A stretch of 64,000 bases of DNA, taken from Massalongia carnosa. Its lineage: Eukaryota. Below, piece by piece: positions 1-34,155 of this stretch (within the stretch, counting starts at the first letter, position 1; each line of letters starts with the position of its first letter). The DNA lies in contig OZ287077.1 in NCBI GenBank assembly GCA_965645245.1, positions 620,001 through 684,000 of the forward strand, given 5' to 3'. The position numbers and the translations under genes are program-made. The notes beneath the pieces are model-generated. The model was given only the letters and a program-made list of their open reading frames with translations. It made no database searches and was not told the DNA's origin.

Positions 1-3000
1 TTGGTCAGCTGCTGATAGTCGCTCGTGCCGGCGGCGCGAAACATCTGTTCTCTATTGTCAATAAGTCTGCAGAACATGATTACATGTTCTGGAGTTTGTC
101 TGTGCCAGCCACATGAGCAGGCCGGTGAGGTGACGGAGGGCACCCGTCGCTTGTAGAGGAAGTCAGCTAACCCGATCTTGCCAGTGCGGATTTGAGTTGT
201 TAGAGCGCTTTCTGCCTTTTTTAGCTGCGTGTGTATTTTCAGCCGTTTTTTGCTCAGTGGGACTGATTGTGCTATGGAGGGTTCGATGACGCGATTTTGA
301 TATGCGCACCACGAGTCGTTCCAGACCTTCATTTGTCGTGCTTTGATTGTTTGCATCTGCTTGTGTCGGGCCGTTGCCGCAACGGTAGCTTCGCGGTGCC
401 ACGCCGGGTAGACTTCGAACCATGGTGGGTGTGCCTTTGGTGGTTGAACTATTTTTGAGTCGATCAGTAGGCTTTTGGCCCAGATGTGTTTCAGCTCTCC
501 CGGGGTGGGCTTTTGAAGTCGTTTGCGACCTGCCTTGCCTCGAAGTTTGTCAGCTATTTTGTTGCATGCGGAGGAGATGATCTTCAATTGGCCTCCGGCT
601 CGGAGCCGGTGCCTTGCCTGTGCTTGTAGCATGTCGAGATGCGTGTCTATGGGTGCTATGAATGTCTCTGCTTCTAGTACTGAGATGGGAGTGGCTTTAA
701 AGGCACCGGCTATGGTGCGAAGGCAATTGTTTTGCATGACGGAGAGCTTGCTCGTTGACGTTTTTGACTTTTTGACTTCTTTGGGCATGTGCCATACGGT
801 TGACCCATATGTCATGGCCGGACGCACCACGGCACTGTAAACCTGCCTTGCCTTGGCGAAGGTGGCACCCCAAGTTGATGTGGAAATTTTTGTCAATGCC
901 ATGGATTGTTTGACCATTTTCTCTTGCGTTTTGCGAACGTGCGGTCCCCATTTCAATTTGGTGTCGATTTGTAGGCCCAATACTCTGATGTCCGTTTTAG
1001 GTTCAATTTCGGTGCTAGCAATATTGATGGATGCAGTCATGTTGAATCTTTTGGGATTTCTGGACAAGTGTATGAGTTCGTACTTCGTCGGAGCAAATAC
1101 GGATCCGTGCCGGGAAGCCCACGTCTCACATTGTCTGTGTATTGCCTCTAGAGTTTTGCAGTTTTCCTCGGTGCTTTTTCCATATGCCAAAATGTTTGCG
1201 TCGTCTACGAATCCTATGGCACTTGTGTTTTTGCCTGGTCGATCACATATTTCCAACAGATCTGCATTGTAAAATAGGTAAAGAATGGATGACAGGGGAG
1301 AGCCCTGCGGGATACCCGTTCTTACCGCAAACCGCCCAGTGACTTTTCGATTTATTGCTAAAGTGGTGCTTCGATCGCTCAGAAAGCTGTTTAACCAGTC
1401 GATGATCCATTTTGGAATTTTTCTTTTCCGTAGGTTGTGCGTTAGTCGTTGATGTGATACCGTATCGAACGCGCCGGCGACGTCCATGCTTAGCAGTGTG
1501 GCTACTTTGTCTTTTCCCTGTCCCCAAATCGTGTGAACCTGTTCAGTTAGCAGTTCCAGTGCTGACTCTGTGGATCTGCCCTTCCTTGCTCCCATCTGTG
1601 TATCGGGTAGGAGCCGGTGTTTTTCCGCCAGATAGGTTATTTTCGATGCAATGATGGATTCCATAACTTTACTGAGCGTGTTGAGCAGTGCAATTGGTCG
1701 GTAGGCTTTCGGCGTGGTATAGTCTCCTTTGCCTATTTTTTTCAGCGCTATTGTGTTTGCCATTTTGAAGGCCCGCGGGTGGTACGAGTGTGTGACGCAC
1801 GCCTGAAACAGAGGTGTTAGTAGTTCGACAAGTATTTCGCTGCATGCTTTGAGTATTCTGTTAGATATGCCGTCTGGGCCCGGTGCCTTATCGGACTTGA
1901 GCCGACTCAGGGCCGTCGATACTTCTGACTTGGTGATGATTATTGGGCAGTGCGGCGATGTAGGATAGAAGGATCCTTCTATGTCGCTTAGGTCGGCCGG
2001 TGGTGGTGCGGGAAAGAAGACACCTTTCAGCATTTCGGCTTTTTGGTCAAACGTGTCTGCTACTTGGTCATTGAATTTTAGCATCGGCATTTTGGATACT
2101 TCTCTAGATTGATGACTTTTGTCTTTGGCCCATTTCGCTAGCCGCCATAGTCCCTGAGGCGTTTCGGTGGCCTTATTGATTTCTTGACGAAAGTTTGTTC
2201 TCTTTGCCTTTTGAATGATTTTCTGTTTTTTATCATTGGATTTCATATAGTTAGACCAGTCCGTTAGGTCTAACGTGCTGGACCATATGCGGCGTAGTTT
2301 CCGTGTGGCTTTGGTGGCAATGCTGCATTCTTCTGTCCAGAATGGCTTAGCATATTCGCTAGATTTTGCCCATGGAACTGCTTCGTTGATGACATTTTGT
2401 AGAAATTTTTGAATCGATTCCGTGTACGCATCAATCTCGGCAGTGGTACGGGGAGACTCCGGTATAGGGGCGTGTCGTTCGGCCTCCCTTAATTTTTCCA
2501 GGTTTAGAAGTTTCCATGCTCTGCGTTTGATTTTCGGTTGCGGCTCGCTTCCGAGTAGGATGCGGGTTGATATCGGCACGTGATCAGACGATTGATTCAA
2601 TTCTGGTCTGGACATGCAGTGTTCGAGTCTTTCGACTAGGTATTCTGACATGAAAACCAAATCTATCGTGCTAGACGTGTTTCTTGCTTCCCATGTTACG
2701 GTGCCTTTCGGCAGTGTCAACGAAAGATTATGATCATCGATTATTTCCAGTAATTGATCAGCAGCAGCGTGTTGTGTGGGTCTTGAGGGACCATTCCAAA
2801 AGGAATGATGCAGGTTGAAATCTCCAAGTAGTATGTGATGCGCATCGGCGCTAAGCATGCTCCGAGCCGCCGGTAAGGTCGTGGGACTGTCAGTGGATGA
2901 ATAGGAAGCGGGAGAGGGGTTATACACATTATGGACGTGAATTGTTTCCATAACGCCTTCGGTGTAGGTCTTTATTTTCAAAGTGCACATGTCGGCCGAG

Positions 3001-3266
3001 GTGAATTCCACCTCCCAGCTGTCAGTGTCTATTAGGTCGTTGACATAAAAGCACACTCTGGTGTCACCTCCTGGGCGGTATAGGAGGTGAAAGCCGCTTT
3101 GATGAGAACTAAGCGATGTGGGGGCGGATGGATTGCGCCACGGTTCCTGTATTGCAATAATATCATAGTCCTGGGTGTTTGTGTCTGCTAAGAGGGGTAT
3201 CATAGTACTCACTCTGTCATTTCTGACATTATACTGCAATATAGAGAGGGATTTTGTGTCCCTCAT
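1..3266 (-). CDS. LINE ORF2 (AP endonuclease + reverse transcriptase + C-terminal CCHC), partial at window edge
   Basis: Hand translation from ATG 3266: LQYNV, IAIQEPW, HNVYNP, LLGDFNLHH, SDHVPI (endonuclease); GIPQGSPLS at ~1316 and GFVDD (RT); CSCGWHRQTPEHVIMFC near position 100. All checked segments are in one frame. Its absence from the ORF track fits an ORF with no stop inside the window. Confidence 0.9.
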   Translation of the reverse strand, partial: MRDTKSLSILQYNVRNDRVSTMIPLLADTNTQDYDIIAIQEPWRNPSAPTSLSSHQSGFHLLYRPGGDTRVCFYVNDLIDTDSWEVEFTSADMCTLKIKTYTEGVMETIHVHNVYNPSPASYSSTDSPTTLPAARSMLSADAHHILLGDFNLHHSFWNGPSRPTQHAAADQLLEIIDDHNLSLTLPKGTVTWEARNTSSTIDLVFMSEYLVERLEHCMSRPELNQSSDHVPISTRILLGSEPQPKIKRRAWKLLNLEKLREAERHAPIPESPRTTAEIDAYTESIQKFLQNVINEAVPWAKSSEYAKPFWTEECSIATKATRKLRRIWSSTLDLTDWSNYMKSNDKKQKIIQKAKRTNFRQEINKATETPQGLWRLAKWAKDKSHQSREVSKMPMLKFNDQVADTFDQKAEMLKGVFFPAPPPADLSDIEGSFYPTSPHCPIIITKSEVSTALSRLKSDKAPGPDGISNRILKACSEILVELLTPLFQACVTHSYHPRAFKMANTIALKKIGKGDYTTPKAYRPIALLNTLSKVMESIIASKITYLAEKHRLLPDTQMGARKGRSTESALELLTEQVHTIWGQGKDKVATLLSMDVAGAFDTVSHQRLTHNLRKRKIPKWIIDWLNSFLSDRSTTLAINRKVTGRFAVRTGIPQGSPLSSILYLFYNADLLEICDRPGKNTSAIGFVDDANILAYGKSTEENCKTLEAIHRQCETWASRHGSVFAPTKYELIHLSRNPKRFNMTASINIASTEIEPKTDIRVLGLQIDTKLKWGPHVRKTQEKMVKQSMALTKISTSTWGATFAKARQVYSAVVRPAMTYGSTVWHMPKEVKKSKTSTSKLSVMQNNCLRTIAGAFKATPISVLEAETFIAPIDTHLDMLQAQARHRLRAGGQLKIISSACNKIADKLRGKAGRKRLQKPTPGELKHIWAKSLLIDSKIVQPPKAHPPWFEVYPAWHREATVAATARHKQMQTIKARQMKVWNDSWCAYQNRVIEPSIAQSVPLSKKRLKIHTQLKKAESALTTQIRTGKIGLADFLYKRRVPSVTSPACSCGWHRQTPEHVIMFCRLIDNREQMFRAAGTSDYQQLT

Positions 3267-4750
3267 AGGATTTCCATCGTTTCGGCCGCTGTGTTCGATG
3301 TGACCTGAGTTCCTGCCGTTAATGCTACGGAATCTGCACGAGGCCTACCCAGCACTGGTTTTGCTAAGGCCTTTACCATATTTTCAGGATTCATGATGCC
3401 TATATTAGCCCAGGTAGGTGCGTCGTCTCCCCGATGAGGGCCCGGGGGTGTGCCGGATGAGGGCGTAGCGTTGTGTATTTTTCTTTTCTTGCCGTTTACT
3501 ATCTTCCACGTTGACGGAATTTCGTCCGTTTGTGTGACTGTGGGTGTCGACTCTCGTTGAAGTTGAAATTGAAATGAGGGCGGCTGTGATTCGATTGCAT
3601 AGAGGGGGGCGCGGTTTTGCATTGCTATTTCAGTTTTTCGCTTTTCAGCTAATCTGACTTTGCATGCTGTGGACCATGCTTCGTGTCCCTTCTCTCCGCA
3701 TACGGCGCAACGGCGGTATTGCCCCGTTGTCTCCAGATTGCATTCTTTGCTTTGATGTCCACCGGCGCAGTGACCACAGGCGGCGGGATTGCGGCATGCT
3801 CTACCGATGTGTCCGTATTTTTGGCAGTTGAAGCATTGAGTCATGGTGCAACCACGTGTGAAGCGCTCGCAGTCCTTTATTTCGTAGCTTTCCATTAGGC
3901 CCTCGGTGATGAGCCGGTTAGCCATCTCGGCGGTGGCGACCTCTATATGAAGCGTCGAGTACGCTTTTTTCTCTCTAATGGCCTTGATTGACCAGGCTAC
4001 TTTGAAGATCTTCAGGTTAGGGTGCAGGCGTGCGTTAGCGGCCTGAAGGTAGGTGATGGCTGTTGATTGATTGGCCACTTTGATGTTTTCCACCCTGATT
4101 CCATTCGCTCTTACGGTGAAGGTGCGGGTGTGCACCGCAGCTGAGGCGGCCACCATGCGGGTCCAATCGGTCTTCTCCTGCAGGGTCTTCTTTGCTTCCA
4201 ATGACTCTGCGTGAATCCTGATGTCGCCGTTTAACAAACGCGACACTCCCCTTATTCCTTCAGCTCCATTTTGTAGTGTTTCTACTAACTCCTTGGTTGG
4301 CATTAGCTTCATTTTTTCCTTGTGCGCATCCTCCGTGATGTGAACGGTGATTTCCCGGGCACGTCGCGCTTCTCTTGGTGTAGGTGCTTTGTCTTTGCGG
4401 GCCTATTGAGGCTTGACGTTTTGGTTCTTTGGGGGTGCGGGCTCATCTCGGCCTTGCCTTGTGGCAGCAGCGGCATAGCTGCGAGGAGTGGTCTCATTGC
4501 GCTCTATGCGTGTCAATGATTGTTGGATTGCCTGTAATGTGTCACCTATGTTGTTGGGAGTTTCTGCAACTTTGTCATCGACTAGATTTTGCGCTTGCAA
4601 AATTTCCGCTGAGTTTCTCAGCAACTGCAACGCCTCCGGGTCACCAACGGTGCCCACTCGATCAAGATACTCCTTGATCTTTACGTGTAAACATTCCCTC
4701 CTTTCGCTGTGCGCTCTCGAGAGCGCGTTTGTTTGTTCGAGTGTAGTCAT
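3263..4750 (-). CDS. LINE ORF1 (gag-like, CCHC zinc knuckles), interrupted by one in-frame TAG at 4403-4405
   Basis: ORFs 4403..4750 and 3263..4312 are in the same frame and joined by open codons (ARKDKAPTPREARRAREITVHI). Motifs CFNCQKYGHIGRAC, CGHCAGGHQSKEC, CAVCGEKGHEAWSTAC. Confidence 0.88.
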
Positions 4751-9444: not shown

Positions 9445-11467
9445 CAGTGAACCCTGGCTATAACGAATCGATGATTCCATGAAAAAAATTCGTTATAACC
9501 AGTTTTCGTTATAACCTTAATTTCTACGAAAACATCTCATTTTCTACCTAAAATAGCTGGTAATGGTCATCTGCTTTCTAGTATTGATTTCCCCATTTAG
9601 CATAACCTGCTCCGAAGCATTCAAACGTTGAATCAGATCGATGTCGCCATCTTCCTGTTGCTCATGAAATGTACGTAGTATTCTCAAAGCTTGAATAGCT
9701 TCAGAGTATTTCACTGTAGGTTTGACGATCTCATCTTCATCCGATTCTTCAATTTGACCCTCGGCGTATGCATCCACAATAGTATCAAGAATGTCATCAT
9801 CATCATCCTCAATGATTTCTTCCGCGGGATTGAGACATCGTTCAATACTTATGACGTCTTGAATGCGATCATTCTTCTTCAACTGCTGCAATGTAGTGCT
9901 CATCTCTTTTACTAGTTGATTGTAGTCTTCCGTCTCTTGATCAACTGCCTTCGACCAACCCTTTTCTTTCGTCCAGCCCATTTTCTTCGCTTGCAATTGC
10001 GTAGTAGGTCCGTAATTTGCTGAGAATACCAAAGACTTAATCCAGCAGTTGACGATAGTAGCGGGTTTGCCGTCATACTCCCAAGCAGTCATTGACCAAC
10101 GAATAGCTTGCAAAATATGCATGTTCTTAAAAGGATCTTTGTCCGCATCATACTGATCACATAAAAAGGCTAGCCATTTTCGCTTGTAGTGAGCCTTAAA
10201 CGTCTTGATGATGCCTTGATCCAATGGTTGACAGATGCTTGTAGCATTGGCAGGAAGAAATATCACTTTAACGTTTGATTCAGGATTTGATTCAGAATAC
10301 TGACGATAGCCAGCAACATGAGCTGAAAATCCATCGACTAGCAAGACTACTTTGCGATTTGTTTGACGACTAAACCATTGCAAATACTCTTGAAATAATA
10401 CTCCCGTCATCCATGCCTTTCTATTGCTTCGCCATAGCATATTCAGGTTGCTAACGTTGATCCCCTCACGCGTAAAACAGCGAGGTGTTTTTGCCGTACC
10501 AATGAACAAAAGTGGAAGTTTATGAGTGCCCGTTGCATTAACGCAAAAATTAACGGTTATTCTAGCTTTCTCAAGCTTCAATCCAGCAGATGAAGCTGTA
10601 GCCAACGTTCCATTCGGATTCATCTTCCAATACAAGGCAGCCTCATCCATGTTGTATACATCGTCTTGATCGTACGGAGCCAACTTAATTCTCAAGTCCC
10701 TCAATTCTTCTTCCACTGTCTCCTTGTCAACTGATGCCGCTTCTCCATGTCGAATACGAAAGGAGATGGAATGACGAGCTTTAAAAGCATCTAGCCAACC
10801 GTTAGAAAATTTGGGCATTTCTTCATGAGAGTATTGAGGAAGTTTTGTCCAGATTTTCTTTGCCATCTCCTTCAATAACTCTCCCGTCACAGTCGCCTGC
10901 TTTGTCTGCATTCGTTGTTGCCATTCGAAAAGAGCCGCTTCAAGATCCGGCCAAAAAGAAGCTTTCAATCTTTTGATATCAGGTTGAAATGTCTCCTTCT
11001 CATTTAAACGATCGTATTTTCGAGAAAGAATATCCGATATTGTAGATTCCGAAGGTGTATGACCGAATTCAGCTTCAAACCAGACTTGAAGAGCTTTGCC
11101 GAAAGGTCTTTTAACGAAATTATTCTGAACATACTGACGAAGCGCGTGTTTTTCTGCATCTGTGATAGGTCGACGACGTTTTTTGGAGGAAGAATTCATG
11201 ATGAGTTGTTGGTTATTAAAAGGATATGTTATCTATCGATAGGATGCGCAGCATGTAGTACTACGTATCAAGAATTTTTATCAGCTAATCCTAAAAGGGT
11301 AATTGCCGAGGTCTAGTTATAGCGAATCACTAAGAAACTTTCTAAAATTGCTTACGAATTCGCAACCGACATTCGTTATTTTACATACAAGAATCGCTCA
11401 TCCATGAAAAAAATTCGTTATAAGCCGAATTCGTTGGAAAAAGGTTCGTTTTAACCAGGGTTCACTG
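9445..11467 (-). mobile_element. Complete pogo/Tigger-like (Tc1/mariner superfamily) DNA transposon
   Basis: 23-bp TIRs CAGTGAACCCTGG(C/T)TA(T/A)AACGAA at 9445 and ending 11467; TA TSD at 9443-9444 and 11468-11469; single transposase ORF. Confidence 0.95.
9544..11199 (-). CDS. CENP-B/pogo-family transposase (two HTH domains + DDE_1 catalytic domain), 551 aa
   Basis: FSNGWLDAFKARH, VYNMDE, KAWMT, LLVDG(FSAH), PANATSICQPLDQGII; ORF uninterrupted. Confidence 0.93.
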   Translation of the reverse strand: MNSSSKKRRRPITDAEKHALRQYVQNNFVKRPFGKALQVWFEAEFGHTPSESTISDILSRKYDRLNEKETFQPDIKRLKASFWPDLEAALFEWQQRMQTKQATVTGELLKEMAKKIWTKLPQYSHEEMPKFSNGWLDAFKARHSISFRIRHGEAASVDKETVEEELRDLRIKLAPYDQDDVYNMDEAALYWKMNPNGTLATASSAGLKLEKARITVNFCVNATGTHKLPLLFIGTAKTPRCFTREGINVSNLNMLWRSNRKAWMTGVLFQEYLQWFSRQTNRKVVLLVDGFSAHVAGYRQYSESNPESNVKVIFLPANATSICQPLDQGIIKTFKAHYKRKWLAFLCDQYDADKDPFKNMHILQAIRWSMTAWEYDGKPATIVNCWIKSLVFSANYGPTTQLQAKKMGWTKEKGWSKAVDQETEDYNQLVKEMSTTLQQLKKNDRIQDVISIERCLNPAEEIIEDDDDDILDTIVDAYAEGQIEESDEDEIVKPTVKYSEAIQALRILRTFHEQQEDGDIDLIQRLNASEQVMLNGEINTRKQMTITSYFR

Positions 11468-24394: not shown

Positions 24395-27300
24395 ACTTTA
24401 CTACGCACGTTATATGAGTCGTTGCTTGACGTAGCAAGAAGAAGATTCGAGATCATACCTAGCACTTTGAGTGGAAGATGGTCAAACACCGGCGTAAATC
24501 ATCGACCGGTTGATGTCCAAGCATGCCCACAGTTCCGAATTATATTTGATGCTTGATAGGGCAAGATCATGCGAGGAGCACGTGCAATTCTATTAGAAAT
24601 CGAAAAGAAGGAAGCGGCGTCGATGGTGTGCCTAACGATCCTTCTTGTCATACAGGATTATAACCACTTTGGAGGATGCAAGAAAGCTGAAAGTTCAAGA
24701 CATTTTACATATCAGCAGAGCTCCTAACTACGAGGTTCAATCGGGGATAGCCTTGTCGCTTCGTAAGGGTTGCTGATCCAGGTTGGACCGAACAAGATGT
24801 TCCGCTGCACTGCCTAGTGTTGACAGTCTTCTCTTCTCAAAAGTGGTGCCTGGAAAGTGATGGTGGGGGAAGCATTTACCACGTGGGGTGGGACACACCC
24901 TCATAACTAGTTCGACAAAGCGGGAAGAAGTCGACGACATTGATTCCTAATGCCTTGGAACCTTGCCTGAGGTAAGGCTGACATAGCCCCAAGCTCGTCG
25001 GTGATAACGATGAAGTGCTTGAAACCGAGAGCGTGGTACCCTGGACCCGGATGCAGCATTAGCAGCTTATCCTTGATCCGTGCCCACGAATCGGACAGGA
25101 CTGTGGCTGATGTCCTTCTGGGGAAAACTCGCGAGTAGCGGCTTCCTAACCCATGAGTAGACGTCATCGTCGACGTCGCCTAAGAAAATGCCATAGGAGG
25201 ACCACCAAGGAAACTCGACAGTTTAGTTCAACACGTGGTGGCACAACCACAAGCTACTAACCCAACTGGTGAGCCTCGGTATTTCAGTAGCCGCACACCA
25301 TACGGTTGCTCTAGAGCTAAGGTCATCATGTGAGTCGACATAGCGCCATCTCTTACCTAACCCATGTGCGGGGCGGCGCGTACCACAACGACACATGGAT
25401 GTTGAAACTTGAGGCTTGATTGAAGATGCAGCTAGTTGGAGCGAAACTCAGGTCATACAACATAGTACGGATTAGTCAAAACAGTCAAATAACAAGCCCC
25501 GATGCTGATACCAAGCTCTCGGCGGATTGAACCCGGAAGTGGTCCGATCGACATGGCCACTGTTCAGTGGAATGGAATCTTGAGGAGCTTACAGAGTACT
25601 CGATGCTTGTTGAGCGCCCACAAACTCCGGCCAGTACAGAGTATCACAAGCTTCTTGCCACATCTCTATTCTGTAGTCGTCTCCCCTCTACCTCCAAGCC
25701 CCTGACGCTAGGTAGGTATGTCGATTCCTTGTTAGCGCTTATGCACAGACGTTGGTGATGCCGAAGGGTGCTTCAGCTCCATCCTCGGAACGAGATAGCT
25801 TTGAACGGGATGACTATAAACAGAACTGCTTGGCCAGTGACGAGTTGATCTGGACAGCGTGACGATCTTCAAACACTGTTGATCCAGGCTGGACGCCTTA
25901 ACCCCCAAAATATTCTTGTTCATCCCATTGGTAACCGCTGGATTTCGTAGGTGCTCGTTCTGGCCTATGTATTGTGTTGAAGACTAATAGCACTTGACGA
26001 CGAAACGGGAACTTTGGGTTGCCCTAGGTCTCCGCCCGAAGAACTCTAAATCTTTCAACCAGAGTGTCGGTGAGGCAACAAGTGTTGATGTAAGAAGTGG
26101 CAAAATGTTAACTGGATTGAGGATACGTTGAGGAATCATATCGGCCGGAAGACATGAGGACTGCCGAAGACTAGTTACCGCGTAGGTACTATGTAGAGTG
26201 TGAAAGCCTGGTACCCATTCATGTAGCTTCCTGTCTCTGCTACTTCGCATCTTCGGAAGCATAGCTCCGGGCCCATAAATCGCAGTACGGTACTTTTGAA
26301 CCGGCAGGTTACAGAAGTGGGAAAGCGGACGGGGAGGGAATCATAGCTCACATCCGGAACCGAAGCAGAAGGTATTCCCGATAATGCGACTCCCGCCGAC
26401 GAACGTGCGTCACGTGGGGACAACTAACTCCAGTGTCTATGCAGGCTTGTAGAAAGCGATATCTAGGCACCCCCCACTGGCACACGTGCAAGAAGATATT
26501 CCAGCAATGTTACACCGCTACGCCGCCGATGATCTGTCTACATATACCATCTGTCATCACCATACATCTGCAGCAAATGTCTTCCTTCCAACCAATCCAC
26601 CCAAAACCTCGGCGAGCTGGATCCGGCCTGGCCGTTTATCCGACCTCCGATTCCCGACTCCCGACCTCCGACCTTCGGCCCTTCCATCGTCTTTGGTACC
26701 GAGCCTCCTTGGCACAAGCCATAAAACAACCAAGCGAGATGAAGGGCTTCATGGTCTGAACGTCACCCAACGATCGCTGTTACACGAGTCTTTACGGTGG
26801 ACTTTGCCATTTTGTCGAAATCTTCTACGCGTAGTATAACCTGAACTAATTTCCCGGAGATGAGAGTAGCCTGAGCAAGAAAGTACCCTGGATGGTGGTA
26901 AGCCGATGGGTCGGTGAGTGGCTCCCTTAAGGGTTTTCCAACTCTACCTAGTTAGGTAGCCTGCATTCAGAGACGGTGGTTGGATTTTTAGCCCCCACAG
27001 TGGAGAAATAAGATTCCAGTTGGGGGTTTGAAACGAAGAGGCTTGGCTGCGCCAAAGGGCCTACGTGTTCAACCTCGTGCTTGTGAGGAATGTAAGATTT
27101 CTGACTTACTCCGGCTATGCTCCTTTAGGTATCCCATTCTCATGCCTCTTTTGTTTTTGATATTGACATTTTGCCGAGCTTGCCTATTCTCAGTCATCCA
27201 TATTATCTTTCATTACACCACGTCCCATTTTTTCTCTTTTTGGTCCATTCTATCTCGCTTCCGCTTCCTTCGTCATGGTTGTACGTTGATGGCGAGAAGA

Positions 27301-27411
27301 TATGATTGACGACACAAAATATAGGACGAGAGGCAAAGGAAGTGTAAAACTAGTTGACACGATAAAAAAGGGGCATTAATATGTGAATGAATTTTATAAA
27401 TGGAAACAAAC

Positions 27412-27682
27412 TGTTGAAATAGGTATATGACTATGGCTATATGGCTATGTAATAATAAAGGTATGTATGACCGTGATGTTAAGGATGAAGAGTTGCTAGG
27501 CAGCAATCTTTTCCTATTACTGGTCACCCCCTTCTAAGCGAGGTGATCTTATCTTATCTTGGGACTAAGCCTAATGCGGCATCTACGGTTTCCATAGATG
27601 ATCTGTCCATCTAGGGCCGTAGGTGCTATGTTCATCGTACTGATAGGTGTTCATTGTGCTGGTAGGAATTGGATATTCAACA
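27412..27682 (-). repeat. 3' LTR (271 bp)
   Basis: Direct repeat of 32754-33027; adjacent to the PPT. Confidence 0.97.
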
Positions 27683-27750
27683 CCCCCCCTCAAGTCCTAC
27701 CAGTACTTGTTTCCATCGTGGATTCAACCGTGGTTGAACTTCTTTACCTC

Positions 27751-30700
27751 TCATGTCTGTTTGTCCATGTTGAGCTGTCTGATAAAGGAGAAGAACTTGA
27801 CGTGCGTGAGGGTTTTTGTCAGTCCATCTGCAATCATGTCTTCGGTCGGAACATAGGTGAGGTCGATTCTTTCTTCTAGCACCTCGTTTCGTATGAAGTA
27901 GTGCTGAATGTCGATATACTTGGTCCTGGAGTGTAATACGGGGTTATTGGCCAGTGCTATGGCGCTTTGATTGTCGCCTTTCAATGCAATTGTGCCTTCT
28001 CCTCTTAACACGTTTATTGTCGGGGATCCGTCATCAGAAGCCATCAATCCGAGTTGGGTCATCAGTAAACGTAGCCATGTTGCCTCCTTTGCTGCTAAGG
28101 TGAATGCCATATACTCTGCTTCGGTTGATGACAATGTGACGGTTGTTTGTCTTTTGGAACACCAGCTTATTGGTCCATTGTTCAGCATGAACACATAACC
28201 TCAGTTGGATTTTCGCTGCTATTTGTCGAAGGTGATGTCTCTATTCTTGGTACCGCTAAGGTATCTGAGAATGTGTTTGGCCGCTTCCATATTTGTTTTG
28301 CCTGGATTCTTTGCATGTCGACTGATTACGGACGTTGCGAAAGCTATGTCAGGCTTGGTTTCTATCATTGCGAACGTGATGGATCCGACCATGGTTTGAT
28401 ATTGCTTTATGTCCTTGTCGGAGTCCTGAAATTCATTGATGAAGAGACAGCCTTCTCGCATGGGAGTGCTTTATGGTTTTGTTGACTCGATCTCGTTCGA
28501 CTTTAAGGCCTAGATAGTAGCTGATTGGTCCCATGTCTACCATCTTGAAAGCTAGCTTGAGCTGTTTCTTGACTTCGGTGATCATCGGGGAACCCTTTGG
28601 GCCTATGATGTTCAAATCGTCAACGAAAGAGGTAACAATGTGTCCTTTTATCCCTTGAGGTGTGACGAAAATGTTATGATCTGCGTGGAGTTTCTCCAAT
28701 CCTAATTTGCTCAATAGAAAAGCTGACAGTCATTCATACCAGAGACGCGGAGACTGTTCAAACCGTACAGGGCTTTGTTCAACCTACACACCATGCCAGC
28801 TGTGTCATATCCTTTCGGCATGTGGACATAGATGAGTTGATAATGAGACCGTTCAGAAAAGCTGTCACTATATCCAGTCGCTCGATGTACAGATAGTGAT
28901 GAGCAGCTAACGCGAATAGCAAGCGAAAAGCCATTGTTTGACCATAGATGCAAAGGTTTGATCGAAATCTACTCAGTATTGTTGTAGATATCCTTTGACA
29001 ACCCATCTGGCTTTAAAGCGAACGATCTTTTCATTTACGTCCCGTTTCAGCTTGAATACTCATTTGCCACTTAAGACTATATGTCCGGGTTCCATGGACT
29101 CGGTAGGTAATGTATCCCAGGTTTTATTCTCCAGTAGATTTTTGATCTCATCCATTACCCAGACTGACTCCATTCGTTTGCGTATTTGGAGTTCATTGCT
29201 TGATGATATGTTGAGTCGTACGTGGGTAGATCGGTCCCATCTTTGAATGTGGCGTCTTCATGAATTCGTAAGTCCTTGACCCTGATGACCTTGTAGTCTT
29301 TTTCCATAAAGACGCGATAGATGGTGCTTCTGTCATATCCACACAGGATTCCTTTCTGAGCCCTCGGAGAAAATTTAGCAGCCTTGCTGTTTATTCCTTT
29401 TCGCTCTTTTTCGTGAATTAATGCATAGACTGTAGATCCGAGAATTCTCAGGTGATCCAGCTTAGGTGACTTCTTCTCGAAGATCTCATACGGGGTTTTA
29501 CCTGCTAAGGCGTTGGTTGGTCTGATGTTCTTGGTGTGAACCATGGCTAGAACCACTTCTGCCCACAAGTAGTCTGGAATGTCTCCGGCAATGACACTGC
29601 ATCTTGTCATGTCCATGATGGTTCTGCCCATTCGTTCCGCGACTCCGTTTTCCTCTTGAGTATGGAGCAGCTGTTTCAAACGTTATGCCTTGTTCCAAGG
29701 ACCAAACGTCTGACTTGTGACTGCGAAGCTCCGTGCCGAAGTCAGTGCGAAAACTGCTTATGAGTTTAGCCTTTCCGGATTTGTTTTGAGCCATGCTGTA
29801 GTATGTCAACAAGTGATCAAACCATTCACTCTTCTTGTGTCCGGTATAGACATGAGTGTATCTGCTAGCATCACAGGTGAAAGTGAAGAAGTAAAGTTCT
29901 TCAAGAAGTCCTGATGGCTTGATTAGTCCCACTAGGTCAGAGTTTATCTTTTGAAAGAGCTCTGTGGCCTTCTCTTGCCGTGTTCGGTTGTATATCTTTT
30001 TGGCTTTTCCCATTTCGCATGCATGGAAAAACCAACCGTGGTTGATATCGTCATCGTACGTTATGTCTAGCGTTTTCAGATATTTTCGACACGTTGCTAT
30101 GTTGAGATGACCAAGCCTTCCATGCCATGTAGTGAGTTTTGATTTGACAGATAATGCCGTCCAGTCCTTGATAGGTGTCCTCGTCCACTTTGCTCAACTG
30201 CATCCTCAAATCTGGAGTGTCAATGGTCGTTGGAATGTTGGTTGAAGTATGAGATAAGTCCGCCCTTCGTTTCTAACGAGGTAGTCTTTTGTTTCTTTGC
30301 TCTTCCGGATTCGAGCGAACTTCTATGTCTTTTTAACTGTGGAAACTTCTGTAAACAGGTATCTAGCCAATGACGAGTGTTCTTTCTCTTGACACATTAA
30401 GAGAAGGTGCAGTTCCCTGATGGGGCTCGACCTCTTGAGTGAGGTGTGCTGATATGAAGTGCCTTGGTGATTTTCATGTTGACATAATAAGCAATAATGG
30501 TCTTCATTGCTTCCGACAGGTTTGTGGTTTCGTATGTTCAATCTCGTCGAAGTTGGGCTATCAATGGGGAATAGACGTCTGGTGTTACCCAGCATCATTC
30601 CCTTAAGCATAAACTCCACGGTATGCACATCCACTTTGGCCTTGTCGTCCAGTATTCCTTTAATCTTGTTTAAAGCGCTCTCGTAATATGCACAGTATAG

Positions 30701-31132
30701 ACTGGTCGTCTCGAAGTCGGTCATCTTCTTGGAACTAACCTTCAGAATGATGTCGCTGATGCTCATTGGTGCTATATCTTGGAATCTATCCTTCAGGATT
30801 TTCCACATTTCTGCCGCATTCTTGTTGTCGATGAGGCTGTAATGGCACTCCGCAACTAATCCGTGAATGATTCCTATAGCCTTGGTCATCTCGGCCTTCT
30901 GTCTATTCTTCTAGTCACGCAGATCTTTTACCAAGATGCTGACTGAAATACCTTTGGCGTCGAAGCCTGCTTGTATTAAACCTTCCTTGATGGTTTCAGC
31001 GGTGATTTCTGATTGATTCTCCAGAATGGCTCCTTCGCAGTTGTTCTTGAGCAGAATGCCTTTCGTATAGCTTGCCCATGCCGAATATCTTTCGGCTTTC
31101 TCCAAAAGATGTGACGTATCTATGATAGACAT
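27751..31132 (-). pseudogene. Degenerate copia gag-pol
   Basis: Fragments in several frames: gag (AAEMWKILKDRF), WHGRLGHLN, integrase (SDLVG, FRTDFGTE, ENGVAERMGRT), RT (IVTAFLNG, LNKALYGL, SFVDDL), RNase H (SSTEAEYMA, GDNQSAI, DMIADGLTK). Stops, frameshifts and deletions present; no protease motif found. Confidence 0.92.
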
Positions 31133-31546
31133 AATGGGAGAATGGGGAGCAATTGAACAAGGCGAGAAACTTAGTAGTGACTGAAAGGATCTGGATCTGT
31201 GACCTTTATGCTTGTTTGCCATGATGAGAATTTCAACTTCGGCTTTTTCAAGGGTCCAATTGCCTAGAAGCAAATTGAGCGCAGGGTTATTCCAATTTGA
31301 TTTACCGACTTTAGGCCGGTTAAATAATAAGAGGCAACTGCCGCACAATCTCATCTAGTGCCTTAAGAAGGCATAATTGCCAAAAAGAAAGGTCTTTGTG
31401 CCTTCGATCAATGAGTTTACTAAGCTCTTTGATGTCCGAGGGATTTTGTATTTTTTGCGTGTCCAGAACTCAACCACGGGTGAAACTGACGCTTTGATGA
31501 TTTTTGAACCAATGCGGCGCTCAGGGCCAGCAATATACTTTTTTTT

Positions 31547-32504
31547 GCCTTCGACCATCGAGCTTAGCGAGCTCTTCTGGTGTCCGAGGACTTCGGTGCC
31601 TTCGACCATCGAGCATAGCAAGCTCTTTTGGTGTCCGAGGACTTGAGTGCCTTCGACCATCGAGCATAGCAAGCTCTTTTGGTGTCCGAGGACTTCGGTG
31701 CCTTCGACCATCGAGCATAGCAAGCTCTTCTGGTGTCCAAGGACCTGGGTGCCTTCGACCATCGAGCTTAGCAAGCTCTTTGGTGTCCGAGGGCTTGAGT
31801 GCCTTCGACCATCGGGCTTAGCAAGCTCTTTGGTGTCCGAGGACTTGATTGCCTTCGACCATCGAGCTTAGCAAGCTCTTTGGTGTCCGAGGACTTAAGT
31901 GCCTTCGACCATCGAGCTTAGCAAGCTCTTCTGGTGTCCGAGGACTTGGGTGCCTTCGACCATCGAGCTTAGCAAGCTCTTCTGGTGTCCGAGGACTTGG
32001 GTGCCTTCGACCATCGAGCTTAGCAAGCTCTTCTGGTGTCCGAGGACTTAAGTGCCTTCGACCATCGAGCTTAGCAAGCTCTTCTGGTGTCCGAGGACTT
32101 GGGTGCCTTCGACCATCGAGCTTAGCAAGCTCTTTGGTGTCCGAGGACTTGAGTGCCTTCGACCATCGAGCATTGCAAGCTCTTTGGTGTCCGAGGACTT
32201 GATTGCCTTCGACCATCGAGCTTAGCAAGCTCTTTGGTTTCCGAGGACTTGATTGCCTTCGACCATCGAGCTTAGCAAGCTCTTTGGTGTCCGAGGGCTT
32301 GATTGCCTTCGACCATCGGGCTTAGCAAGCTCTTTGGTGTCCGAGGACTTGATTGCCTTCGACCATCGAGCTTAGCAAGCTCTTTGGTGTCCGAGGGCTT
32401 GAGTGCCTTCGACCATCGAGCTTAGCAAGCTCTTTGGTGTCCGAGGACTTGAGTGCCTTCGACCATCGAGCTTAGCAAGCTCTTTGGTGTCCGAGGGCTT
32501 CGGT
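31547..32504. repeat. Tandem array of 19 x 50/51-bp hairpin-forming units in the copia 5' leader (plus one degenerate unit at ~31400-31447)
   Basis: Unit GCCTTCGACCATCGAGCTTAGCAAGCTCTT(C)TGGTGTCCGAGGACTTNNNT, counted by hand; starts at 31547, 31598, 31649, 31700, 31751, 31801 ... 32455. Confidence 0.97.
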
Positions 32505-32741
32505 GTAGTACGATCAATGTGTTCATGCTCTTTCTAATACGCAGTTTTTGTGCTTCTGACAAGAAATCGCTGTGTACAGAAGAGAGAACTGATTGATGTG
32601 ATTTGAGGGATCGTTTCTAAAGACACAGAAAGATTTTAGTCATGTGTCTACGATTCATTGAATAGGAACGATGCTTAGCTGATTGCACTGCGATGCTGCG
32701 GATTAAAAGCTTCGATTCATTTAAATCGATAGCACCCTTCC

Positions 32742-32753
32742 GGGCTCATAACC
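32742..32753 (-). other. Primer-binding site complementary to the anticodon arm of initiator tRNA-Met (half-tRNA priming)
   Basis: GGTTATGAGCCC immediately follows the 5' LTR on the minus strand; complementary to GGGCUCAUAACC of tRNAi-Met. Confidence 0.85.
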
Positions 32754-33027
32754 TGTTGAAATAGGTATATGACTATGGCTATATGGCTATGTAATAATAA
32801 AGGTATGTATGACCGTGATGTTAAGGATGAAGAGTTGCTAGGCAGCAATCTTTTCCTATTACTGGTCACCCCCTTCTAAGCGAGGTGATCTTATCTTATC
32901 TTGGGACTAAGCCTAATGCGGCATCTACGGTTTCCATAGATGATCTGTCCATCTAGGGCAGCCGTAGGTGCTATGTTCATCGTACTGATAGGTGTTCATT
33001 GTGCTGGTAGGAATTGGATATTCAACA
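32754..33027 (-). repeat. 5' LTR (274 bp)
   Basis: Identical to 27412-27682 by eye except a 3-bp indel (ctagggCAGccgt vs ctagggccgt). Confidence 0.97.
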
Positions 33028-34155
33028 CAAACCAATTATCAACAAAAACAATATCGAAGCGGGTATGAGAACAAAAACTTGGACTTTACGAGTTACGGAA
33101 GTTGAGAAACCTCTGACGAAACGCAAGCCGACCTCTTCACTTTTCATGTGTCCATCTATCTACCTTTACTGATCCTCATTCAATCCCATAACTACCTTGC
33201 AGGCAGAATTTCAGGCAAGGAACAAACACGATGAGGATACACGAGGAGAAGAGCAAGGGAAAAACGCGAGAACTAAAGGAGAGCCCATGGACAACTGAAA
33301 CCCTTCTCCGCCGACGAAAGCCTAACCTTGCTACTCGAAATTTTGAGGCAACAACAACAAAAACAATCTTCGCAACGAAAAACCAACCTTGCCCATTCCC
33401 TCTACTCATCATAATGCTAGCCAGGCAGACCAGAAGCGATGATAGCTATGGGAAGCGTGAAAAAGGAAATCGGGAGAAGCTTTGTCTGTGGGCCGATTTT
33501 TCTTATATGTAAGATGTATATATATACATTTACTTTACACCTAGAGCTGAGAATCGAGTTTGGGAAAATCCTATCTCTTATATATACATCATATGTAGGT
33601 TTCTTTGACACCTAGATGTGAAAATTCGAGATACCTAACTAGCTAGGTAGGTAGGTAGGTATTCTATCCCATTCAAGATGAATTGGGGTGTTGGATGTTT
33701 GTACTGTTGTAGATAACAAGGTACCTAGGTAGGAGGGGAATGAGCTGTCTGTGCTCTGTACGGCTAGCTACCTATTATGATTACATAGGTGTGAGAGTGA
33801 GTAAATGTGTTCGTGCAGACATGGTGGGTGGGCACGATGAACGATGAATCTGCTGGAAGAAAATTGTGTCGTTAATACTAACAGCTTGGTCTTCAAGGTG
33901 TGAAGTGATGTACCGCCAGAAGCTCTGAGGGGGGAAACAATGATCATGGTGATATCACTCCGAGAAGTCAAAAAACCCTCGGATTAGGCTTAACCCCAAG
34001 CCCATGTATTTTGTTATCGGTCTTACAGGAAAGAGTTTAACGGAATCTTACACTACGTGCATGTATCAAGGAAGAACAAAAAACCCTTGGGTTCTCATCC
34101 TACACGCTCCCGCCCTGTTCCCATGCGCCTACCCCAAACACCCTCCCGATTCCCC

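Follow-up and report, generated by a model that had tools for sequence, protein, structure and literature searches.

Tandem repeats in the leaders of LTR retrotransposons have been described in flies and plants. In Drosophila, 19 of 49 LTR elements possess tandem-repeat 5' leaders (PMC8872304), and Tirant carries between two and six copies of a 102 bp unit (PMC5408687). The fly elements in which unit number is described as variable, namely gypsy, ZAM, Tirant, accord and Idefix, are gypsy-type, and the functions reported for their arrays in the available text of these sources act at the level of DNA, as enhancers, silencers, insulators, or binding sites for HP1 or RpL22. Among plants, all copia lineages of cranberry possess UTR repeats beside the LTR or gag (10.1101/2021.07.15.452536); the repeats of plant Ty1/copia and Tat/Ogre elements lie in LTRs or UTRs, are 2-49 bp in length, and number about 2-8 copies for copia and up to 15 for Tat, with evidence on RNA structure going unmentioned in the available portion of the source. 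Maize Sireviruses, which are also copia elements, carry repeated hairpin-prone palindromes whose number changes with age (PMC4728375), but these are short, lie in the cis-regulatory region of the LTR, and are discussed in the available text as promoter motifs or siRNA targets. A different precedent is provided by retroviral packaging signals, which are stem-loops of the 5' leader recognised by structure (PMC12789967); as far as the available text goes, the retroviral Psi and dimerisation site consists of a few different stem-loops between PBS and gag together with a palindromic kissing loop.

The element described here combines features of these systems. It lies in a window of 64,000 nucleotides of the Massalongia carnosa assembly (GCA_965645245.1, contig OZ287077.1, positions 620,001 to 684,000), whose host is a fungus, as judged by 40 Fungal_trans matches. 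Its 5' leader contains a tandem array of variable unit number, as in the Drosophila elements, but it is a fungal copia element with up to 31 hairpin units per copy, and its arrays are longer in a non-autonomous clade. The array shares a UTR location with the plant repeats and, unlike the Sirevirus LTR palindromes, is found in the leader after the PBS. Its position between PBS and gag is that of Psi, with the difference that it is a long array of a single unit whose Gag binding is putative. Neither a leader array in a fungal copia element nor a report of longer arrays in non-autonomous copies was found in the literature searched, which lay mostly outside subscription journals. The reading tentatively preferred, at a probability of roughly 0.45, is that slippage of reverse transcriptase multiplied an RNA stem-loop of the leader, whose role is probably in packaging or dimerisation.

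The window holds a complete copia insertion on its minus strand, with a pair of LTRs, a PBS motif, a leader, a broken gag-pol region and a polypurine tract (PPT). In the order of the element, its features are as follows.

33028..33032: 5' target-site duplication (TSD) GTTTG, 5 nt, repeated on both flanks of the element
32754..33027, minus strand: 5' LTR, 274 nt, TG...CA
32742..32753, minus strand: PBS motif GGTTATGAGCCC, immediately after the LTR
32505..32741, minus strand: unique pre-array leader
31547..32504, minus strand: tandem array of 19 imperfect-palindrome units of 50 or 51 nt, one ATG per unit
31398..31446, minus strand: decayed older unit, its stem kept, with ACCA/TGGT altered on both sides to ATCA/TGAT
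31300..31324, minus strand: single-copy GGCC hairpin, weakened in the window copy
30323..31132, minus strand: gag, broken, with an in-frame stop at about 30911, frameshifts, and its 3' end deleted
27751..30193, minus strand: pol remnants, comprising integrase, an SH3-like domain, and RT and RNase H pieces, with the protease region deleted
27683..27692, minus strand: PPT
27412..27682, minus strand: 3' LTR, 271 nt
27407..27411: 3' target-site duplication GTTTG, matching the 5' copy

Assignment to Ty1/copia follows from the TG...CA LTRs, the 5-nt TSD, the position of the PBS, the PPT, the order protease-integrase-RT, and an RVT_2-type RT, the last two read from an intact relative (L070) together with the window remnants. 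L070 matches Pol_BBD, gag_pre-integrs, SH3_retrovirus and RVT_2, and the window gag, with its ATG at 31132, gives a weak match to Retrotran_gag_2. Because the two window LTRs differ only by one 3-nt indel and are flanked by the duplication GTTTG, the insertion is taken to be young. The PBS motif GGTTATGAGCCC occurs, with at most one mismatch, at 298 places in the genome, and presumably resembles the internal initiator-tRNA site used by Drosophila copia. Elsewhere, the window contains a LINE-like element (3-4402; zinc knuckle, endonuclease, RT) and a Tc5/pogo-type DDE transposase (9547-11232).

A first-pass annotation of this DNA had described the array as 19 units spanning 958 bp, and this description holds: on the minus strand, from 32504 to 31547, there are 11 units of 50 nt and eight of 51 nt, situated, as it had also proposed, downstream of the PBS (32753-32742) and upstream of the gag ATG (31132). 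A genome-wide search with a 28-nt piece of the unit gave 620 matches as compared to none for a reversed control, so the array is not peculiar to the window copy; the start of the array has 48 matches. Nor is it an artefact of assembly, as unit-to-unit joints are present in contigs of three of four public DNA runs, and in the fourth, loose contig ends run into another unit, the four runs representing at most three samples from two studies, with the source of the assembly possibly among them. In one run (X1), contigs across the junction of flank and LTR were not found, a result that carries no weight either way. The array is thus real and family-wide.

The set examined comprised the window and 45 array-bearing loci, with four further listed array starts left out; exclusion of three fragmentary loci (L062, L088 and L090) gave 43 copies for analysis. 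All 43 carry the array, 16 being full-length and 27 deleted. The distance separating array and PPT is about 4.8 kb in the 16 full-length copies, four of which possess pol frames of 1110-1111 aa. Seven deletions are common to all 27 defective copies, the window copy among them, and are present in none of the 13 full-length copies compared; one of these, of 423 nt, removes the end of gag and the protease region. In a tree of 41 rows, from which L065 and L089 were left out on account of later insertions, the full-length copies form one clade with a support of 100/100. Identical 5-nt TSDs flank 23 of the 28 copies in which both ends were found. The shared deletions and the TSDs together indicate that the deleted group is a non-autonomous subfamily that continued to transpose in trans after loss of its enzymes, with intact partners, those with the 1110-1111-aa pol frames, at a distance of about 5%. 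In every copy with a PBS (40/40), the array occupies the stretch of 5' leader that separates PBS from gag, and since independently inserted copies carry it there, it would be part of the genomic RNA of the element, given transposition and replication through LTRs.

The intact copies also possess a distinctive coding arrangement, namely a single gag-pol frame split by a TGA, observed in all five intact copies checked, from four families (L070, at 2676-2678, L054, L071, L075 and L079), with similar 3' context at each junction; the junction is deleted in the window copy. The arrangement resembles the stop bypass of Tca2 of Candida albicans, an LTR retrotransposon with an in-frame UGA between gag and pol, for which the available text of the source mentions no leader array (PMC2194720).

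That the array is far better preserved than the adjacent coding region, as had been suggested, is not borne out. The window units differ from one another by 5.7%, whereas relative to full-length copies the window gag differs by 4.95% and the window pol by 4.68%; the coding region looks decayed because its deletions are inherited, and its substitutions place it only about 5% from intact copies. RIP hypermutation was considered, but singleton C>T and G>A changes account for 292 of 822 changes, a pattern that does not fit. Between the two clades, the first unit of the array differs by 0.8% and the pre-array leader by 2.2%, as compared to about 5% for coding DNA.

The hairpin originally attributed to each unit was drawn on the plus strand, the antisense strand of the element; the sense strand can adopt it as well, but only moderately. 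Sense-strand folding of the commonest units gives z scores of -1.6 to -2.7, and two common variants give -0.6 and +0.2. For the whole array, z is -10.5 against shuffled sequence, a value inflated by repetition; with a null that allows for repetition, six tandem copies of one shuffled unit, it is -1.6 (p 0.07), and folding of the array is not clearly better than this null. An Rfam scan, which the first-pass annotation had suggested, found nothing across 27300-33100 with an E-value of 1 or less. Two symmetry centres exist in the array, a consequence of the imperfect palindrome in each unit, and the same base pairs can be drawn in both registers. In the favoured predicted fold, each unit pairs with the next and the variable 6-nt "linker" becomes the apical loop: at a 55-nt span, the next-unit register has a pair probability of about 0.7 as compared to 0.29, and the two natural 50-nt phases have predicted energies of -21.2 and -15.7 kcal/mol in favour of the next-unit register. 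A duplex between two units is predicted at -39 kcal/mol. A kissing-type self-complementary loop was not found, the loops being either GCU or the variable 6-nt linker, and pairing between two RNAs would, on these models, take the form of an extended duplex.

Since the array can, in prediction, form long imperfect duplexes, it might serve as a source of small RNAs or as a silencing decoy, with hairpins or inter-unit duplexes being diced or silencing factors soaked up, and the hairpin-prone LTR palindrome regions of maize Sireviruses are, in the text available, siRNA hotspots (PMC4728375). Such a role is judged very unlikely, given that the helices are only 3-7 bp between loops and that the array is kept in actively spreading copies, the youngest of which carry the most units.

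Variation among the 575 units of the family bears on the fold in two ways. The linker had been said to hold the most variable positions, and its positions 2-4 do vary most, but the GAGCTT/AAGCTC stem is also often broken, with pair 27-33 intact in 397 of 575 units. This inner stem, which in the favoured register is the base of the hairpin, is disrupted by all seven common variants (those present at five or more loci) and is intact in 206 of 462 units of the defective clade. The outer stems are spared: none of their three common variants breaks pairing, as compared to 19 of 25 rarer alleles (p 0.026, for a division into outer and inner stems made post hoc, after the data were seen), and 17 of 20 outer-stem positions lack a common variant, as compared to nine of 18 unpaired positions that vary. 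Sparing of the outer stems fits a protein-binding sequence equally well. Among the 575 units no pair is altered on both sides.

Compensatory changes are found instead in the leaders of sister copia families, which share 56-84% integrase identity and are joined by a further family, G, whose gag is 60-67% identical to that of B. The units of these families are divergent enough for pairing to be assessed. These leaders contain arrays of unrelated sequence, with units of 74 nt in B, 55-72 nt in C/E/F, 50 nt in G and 29-34 nt in D, and families E and F carry a second leader array with a 38-nt unit. By blastn, the leader of the window family (A) matches the others only in its LTR/PBS part and one short hairpin; different leader segments have thus been amplified in each family, and two of the resulting arrays are unstructured, as neither the D array (mean z +0.27) nor the 38-nt E unit (-0.07) folds. 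Three of the five sister array types are hairpins with compensatory changes. The clearest case is C/E/F (42 distinct units from seven loci, selected by a pattern with fixed ends), in which four of nine pairs are changed on both sides through a G-C/G-U/A-U series on the sense strand, and 94% of cells are paired, as compared to 31-54% in slid controls; none of 500 shuffles is as high. For B (10 units, one match outside the leader having been dropped), two of five pairs are changed on both sides, and shuffles do as well in 0/500 cases by score and in 259/500 by number of pairs; for G (10 units), the figure is one of nine pairs, with eight of 500 shuffles as high. All of these covariation figures are inflated, as the units are related and the structures were derived from the same alignments.

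These results also weigh on the possibility that the array functions as DNA, with each imperfect palindrome binding a host protein as part of an enhancer, silencer or insulator, its possible target being either the LTR promoter or an internal one just upstream of gag. This has the best-documented precedent of the readings, as tandem units in the 5' UTR with polymorphic number are what is described, in the available text, for gypsy, ZAM and Tirant of flies (PMC8872304, PMC5408687), and the outer-stem positions are mostly invariant. ATGs in the leader, moreover, number 14 in one intact copy and about 31 in that of the window, so that Gag is probably made from another mRNA, and in families A, C and F a TATA-like word, TTGTCTAT, lies 91-160 nt upstream of the gag ATG. 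No motif common to the A, B, C, D and G units was seen, however, and the two-sided changes of C/E/F, with their sense-strand G-U intermediates, point to pairing in RNA; a DNA-level role is on balance considered rather unlikely. The TTGTCTAT word, a possible internal TATA box by its sequence, occurs in L070 at 1670 and is missing from the window copy near 31210, where about 78 nt are deleted. A branch-point/acceptor-like word is present 113-132 nt after the PBS in families A, B and C (32640-32617 in the window), and splicing that ended there could strip the PBS from an mRNA.

Unit number varies from 2 to 31 per copy across the family. Comparison of autonomous with defective copies, as the first-pass annotation had recommended, shows approximately twice as many units in the non-autonomous clade: among copies with a PBS, the range is 3-11 units for full-length copies (median 8, n=15) and 6-31 for deleted ones (median 16, n=25), with a nominal p of 2e-6 that is overstated because one clade is set against another, in what amounts to a single evolutionary contrast. 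The difference is also seen among young copies, with 7-11 units in full-length (n=8) and 11-31 in deleted ones (n=16). Change is rapid, as nearest neighbours only 0.1% apart have 30 and 13, 19 and 23, or 17 and 24 units, and arrays contain block duplications of up to ten units; one such block, of ten units and marked by four variants seen in no other copy, is duplicated inside the L039 array. Within both clades, more divergent copies have fewer units (rho -0.61 and -0.53 by nearest-neighbour distance; -0.39, not significant, and -0.44 by LTR divergence), a trend that fits shrinkage after insertion or growth over time equally. From PBS to PPT, the longest deleted copies (L049, L032 and L063) measure 5623-5712 nt and the longest full-length copy (L058) 5621 nt, which suggests a length ceiling, possibly one set by packaging. 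In the sister families, unit number is nearly constant in B and C and mixed in D, where five copies with a long pol frame have 8-14 subunits and eight broken copies 5-17; a second clean contrast of defective with intact copies was not found among them.

The two unit lengths raise the further question of whether the array is translated, since the 51-nt variant corresponds to a 17-residue repeat, as part of a coding repeat or upstream ORF. Several defective copies do contain open frames of 200-321 codons across runs of 51-nt units, but full-length copies, with 0-1 units of 51 nt apiece, consist almost wholly of 50-nt units, and these introduce stops into every frame, the two lengths are freely mixed, and the one array frame scanned has no convincing Pfam match. 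Translation of the array is accordingly regarded as a highly improbable explanation.

More difficult to set aside is a neutral minisatellite, in which duplication of a hairpin on which reverse transcriptase stalls was followed by drift in copy number, with expansion, of no use to the element, wherever limits imposed by translation or length were relaxed. The dynamics of the array, with unit number changing fast and in both directions, are explained equally well in this way, and so are the spread of stem-breaking variants, the ceiling-like lengths of the longest defective copies, barely above that of the longest full-length copy, and the amplification of a different leader segment, unstructured in two cases, in each family. 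Direct repeats, however, tend toward deletion during reverse transcription, and yet all 40 copies whose 5' end is intact retain three units or more. Against neutrality stand also the compensatory changes in sister arrays and the low divergence between clades of the first unit and pre-array leader relative to coding DNA, and on balance an array without use is likewise considered rather unlikely.

An RNA role is favoured because of the position of the array, covariation in three sister arrays, the spared outer stems, and the retention of at least three units in all 40 copies. On the preferred reading, the array would consist of many copies of one cis-acting stem-loop, carried in the 5' leader of a genomic RNA that, as expected from LTR replication, is packaged and reverse-transcribed. 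Misaligned template switching or slippage between repeats is the standard route for copy-number change in such arrays, and probably accounts for the shifts in unit number here, with some change presumably occurring after insertion. Acting on RNA, the stem-loops may provide several Gag-binding and dimerisation sites, proposed because a unit is predicted to pair either with its neighbour or with its counterpart in a second RNA. The longer arrays of the defective clade could then arise because its leader need not be translated and because the deletions leave 0.9-1.0 kb of spare length. The case is limited by its one contrast and by modest folding; what raises it above an ordinary minisatellite is the contrast of helper and dependent copies, together with the fact that sister families have repeatedly amplified different covarying hairpins.

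A stronger version had been put forward in the first-pass annotation, where one inference was that the array is an amplified packaging signal by which a defective element parasitises its helper, the alternative being a small-RNA or decoy cassette. Parts of this stand, as the array is in every copy examined, the non-autonomous clade has about twice the units, and sister arrays covary, but intact copies also carry the array, which is therefore not the invention of a defective element, and the difference in unit number comes from a single clade, is explained equally by freed length, and is accompanied by no compensatory change in 575 units. A tunable, multivalent packaging signal may nonetheless be envisaged, in which the defective clade, much like defective-interfering viral RNAs, spends its freed length on hairpins and out-competes the helper for Gag, and sister families independently amplified hairpins of their own for the same job. 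The numbers of copies (27 defective, 16 full-length), the doubled unit number, the long arrays of the youngest copies, the shared length ceiling, and the existence of four unrelated hairpin arrays all fit, though the proposal as a whole is doubtful. Little is understood of the way in which non-autonomous LTR elements compete successfully with their helpers for packaging, and the family, whose helper and dependent copies in one genome range from 2 to 31 units, constitutes a natural series in which the effect of unit number is directly testable. Tandem 5' leaders are usually interpreted as DNA enhancers; the repeated, independent amplification of different leader hairpins suggests RNA-level roles for them.

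Other leader features are shared among the families. A single 47-48-nt look-alike of the window unit is found at a similar place in the B, E and F leaders, and suggests a lone leader hairpin as the origin of the unit; in the look-alikes one of six pairs covaries, which is not above shuffles, and the upper helix is mis-registered in the structural alignment. Families A, B, C, E and F share the GGCC hairpin upstream of gag, whose stems have changed yet remain paired and which is a candidate dimerisation site or protein site. Beyond this genome, a protein homologue search gave 44 matches, and a Gag profile applied to metagenome contigs gave 241 pattern matches, none of which was confirmed. A scan of metagenomes for the PBS pattern found leader repeats at approximately eight of 80 loci, with units of 28-46 nt in 2.7-5.2 copies on what are short contigs; six metagenomic loci (L165, L158, L177, L182, L135 and L139) combine the PBS motif GGTTATGAGCCC with leader repeats of 34-46 nt.
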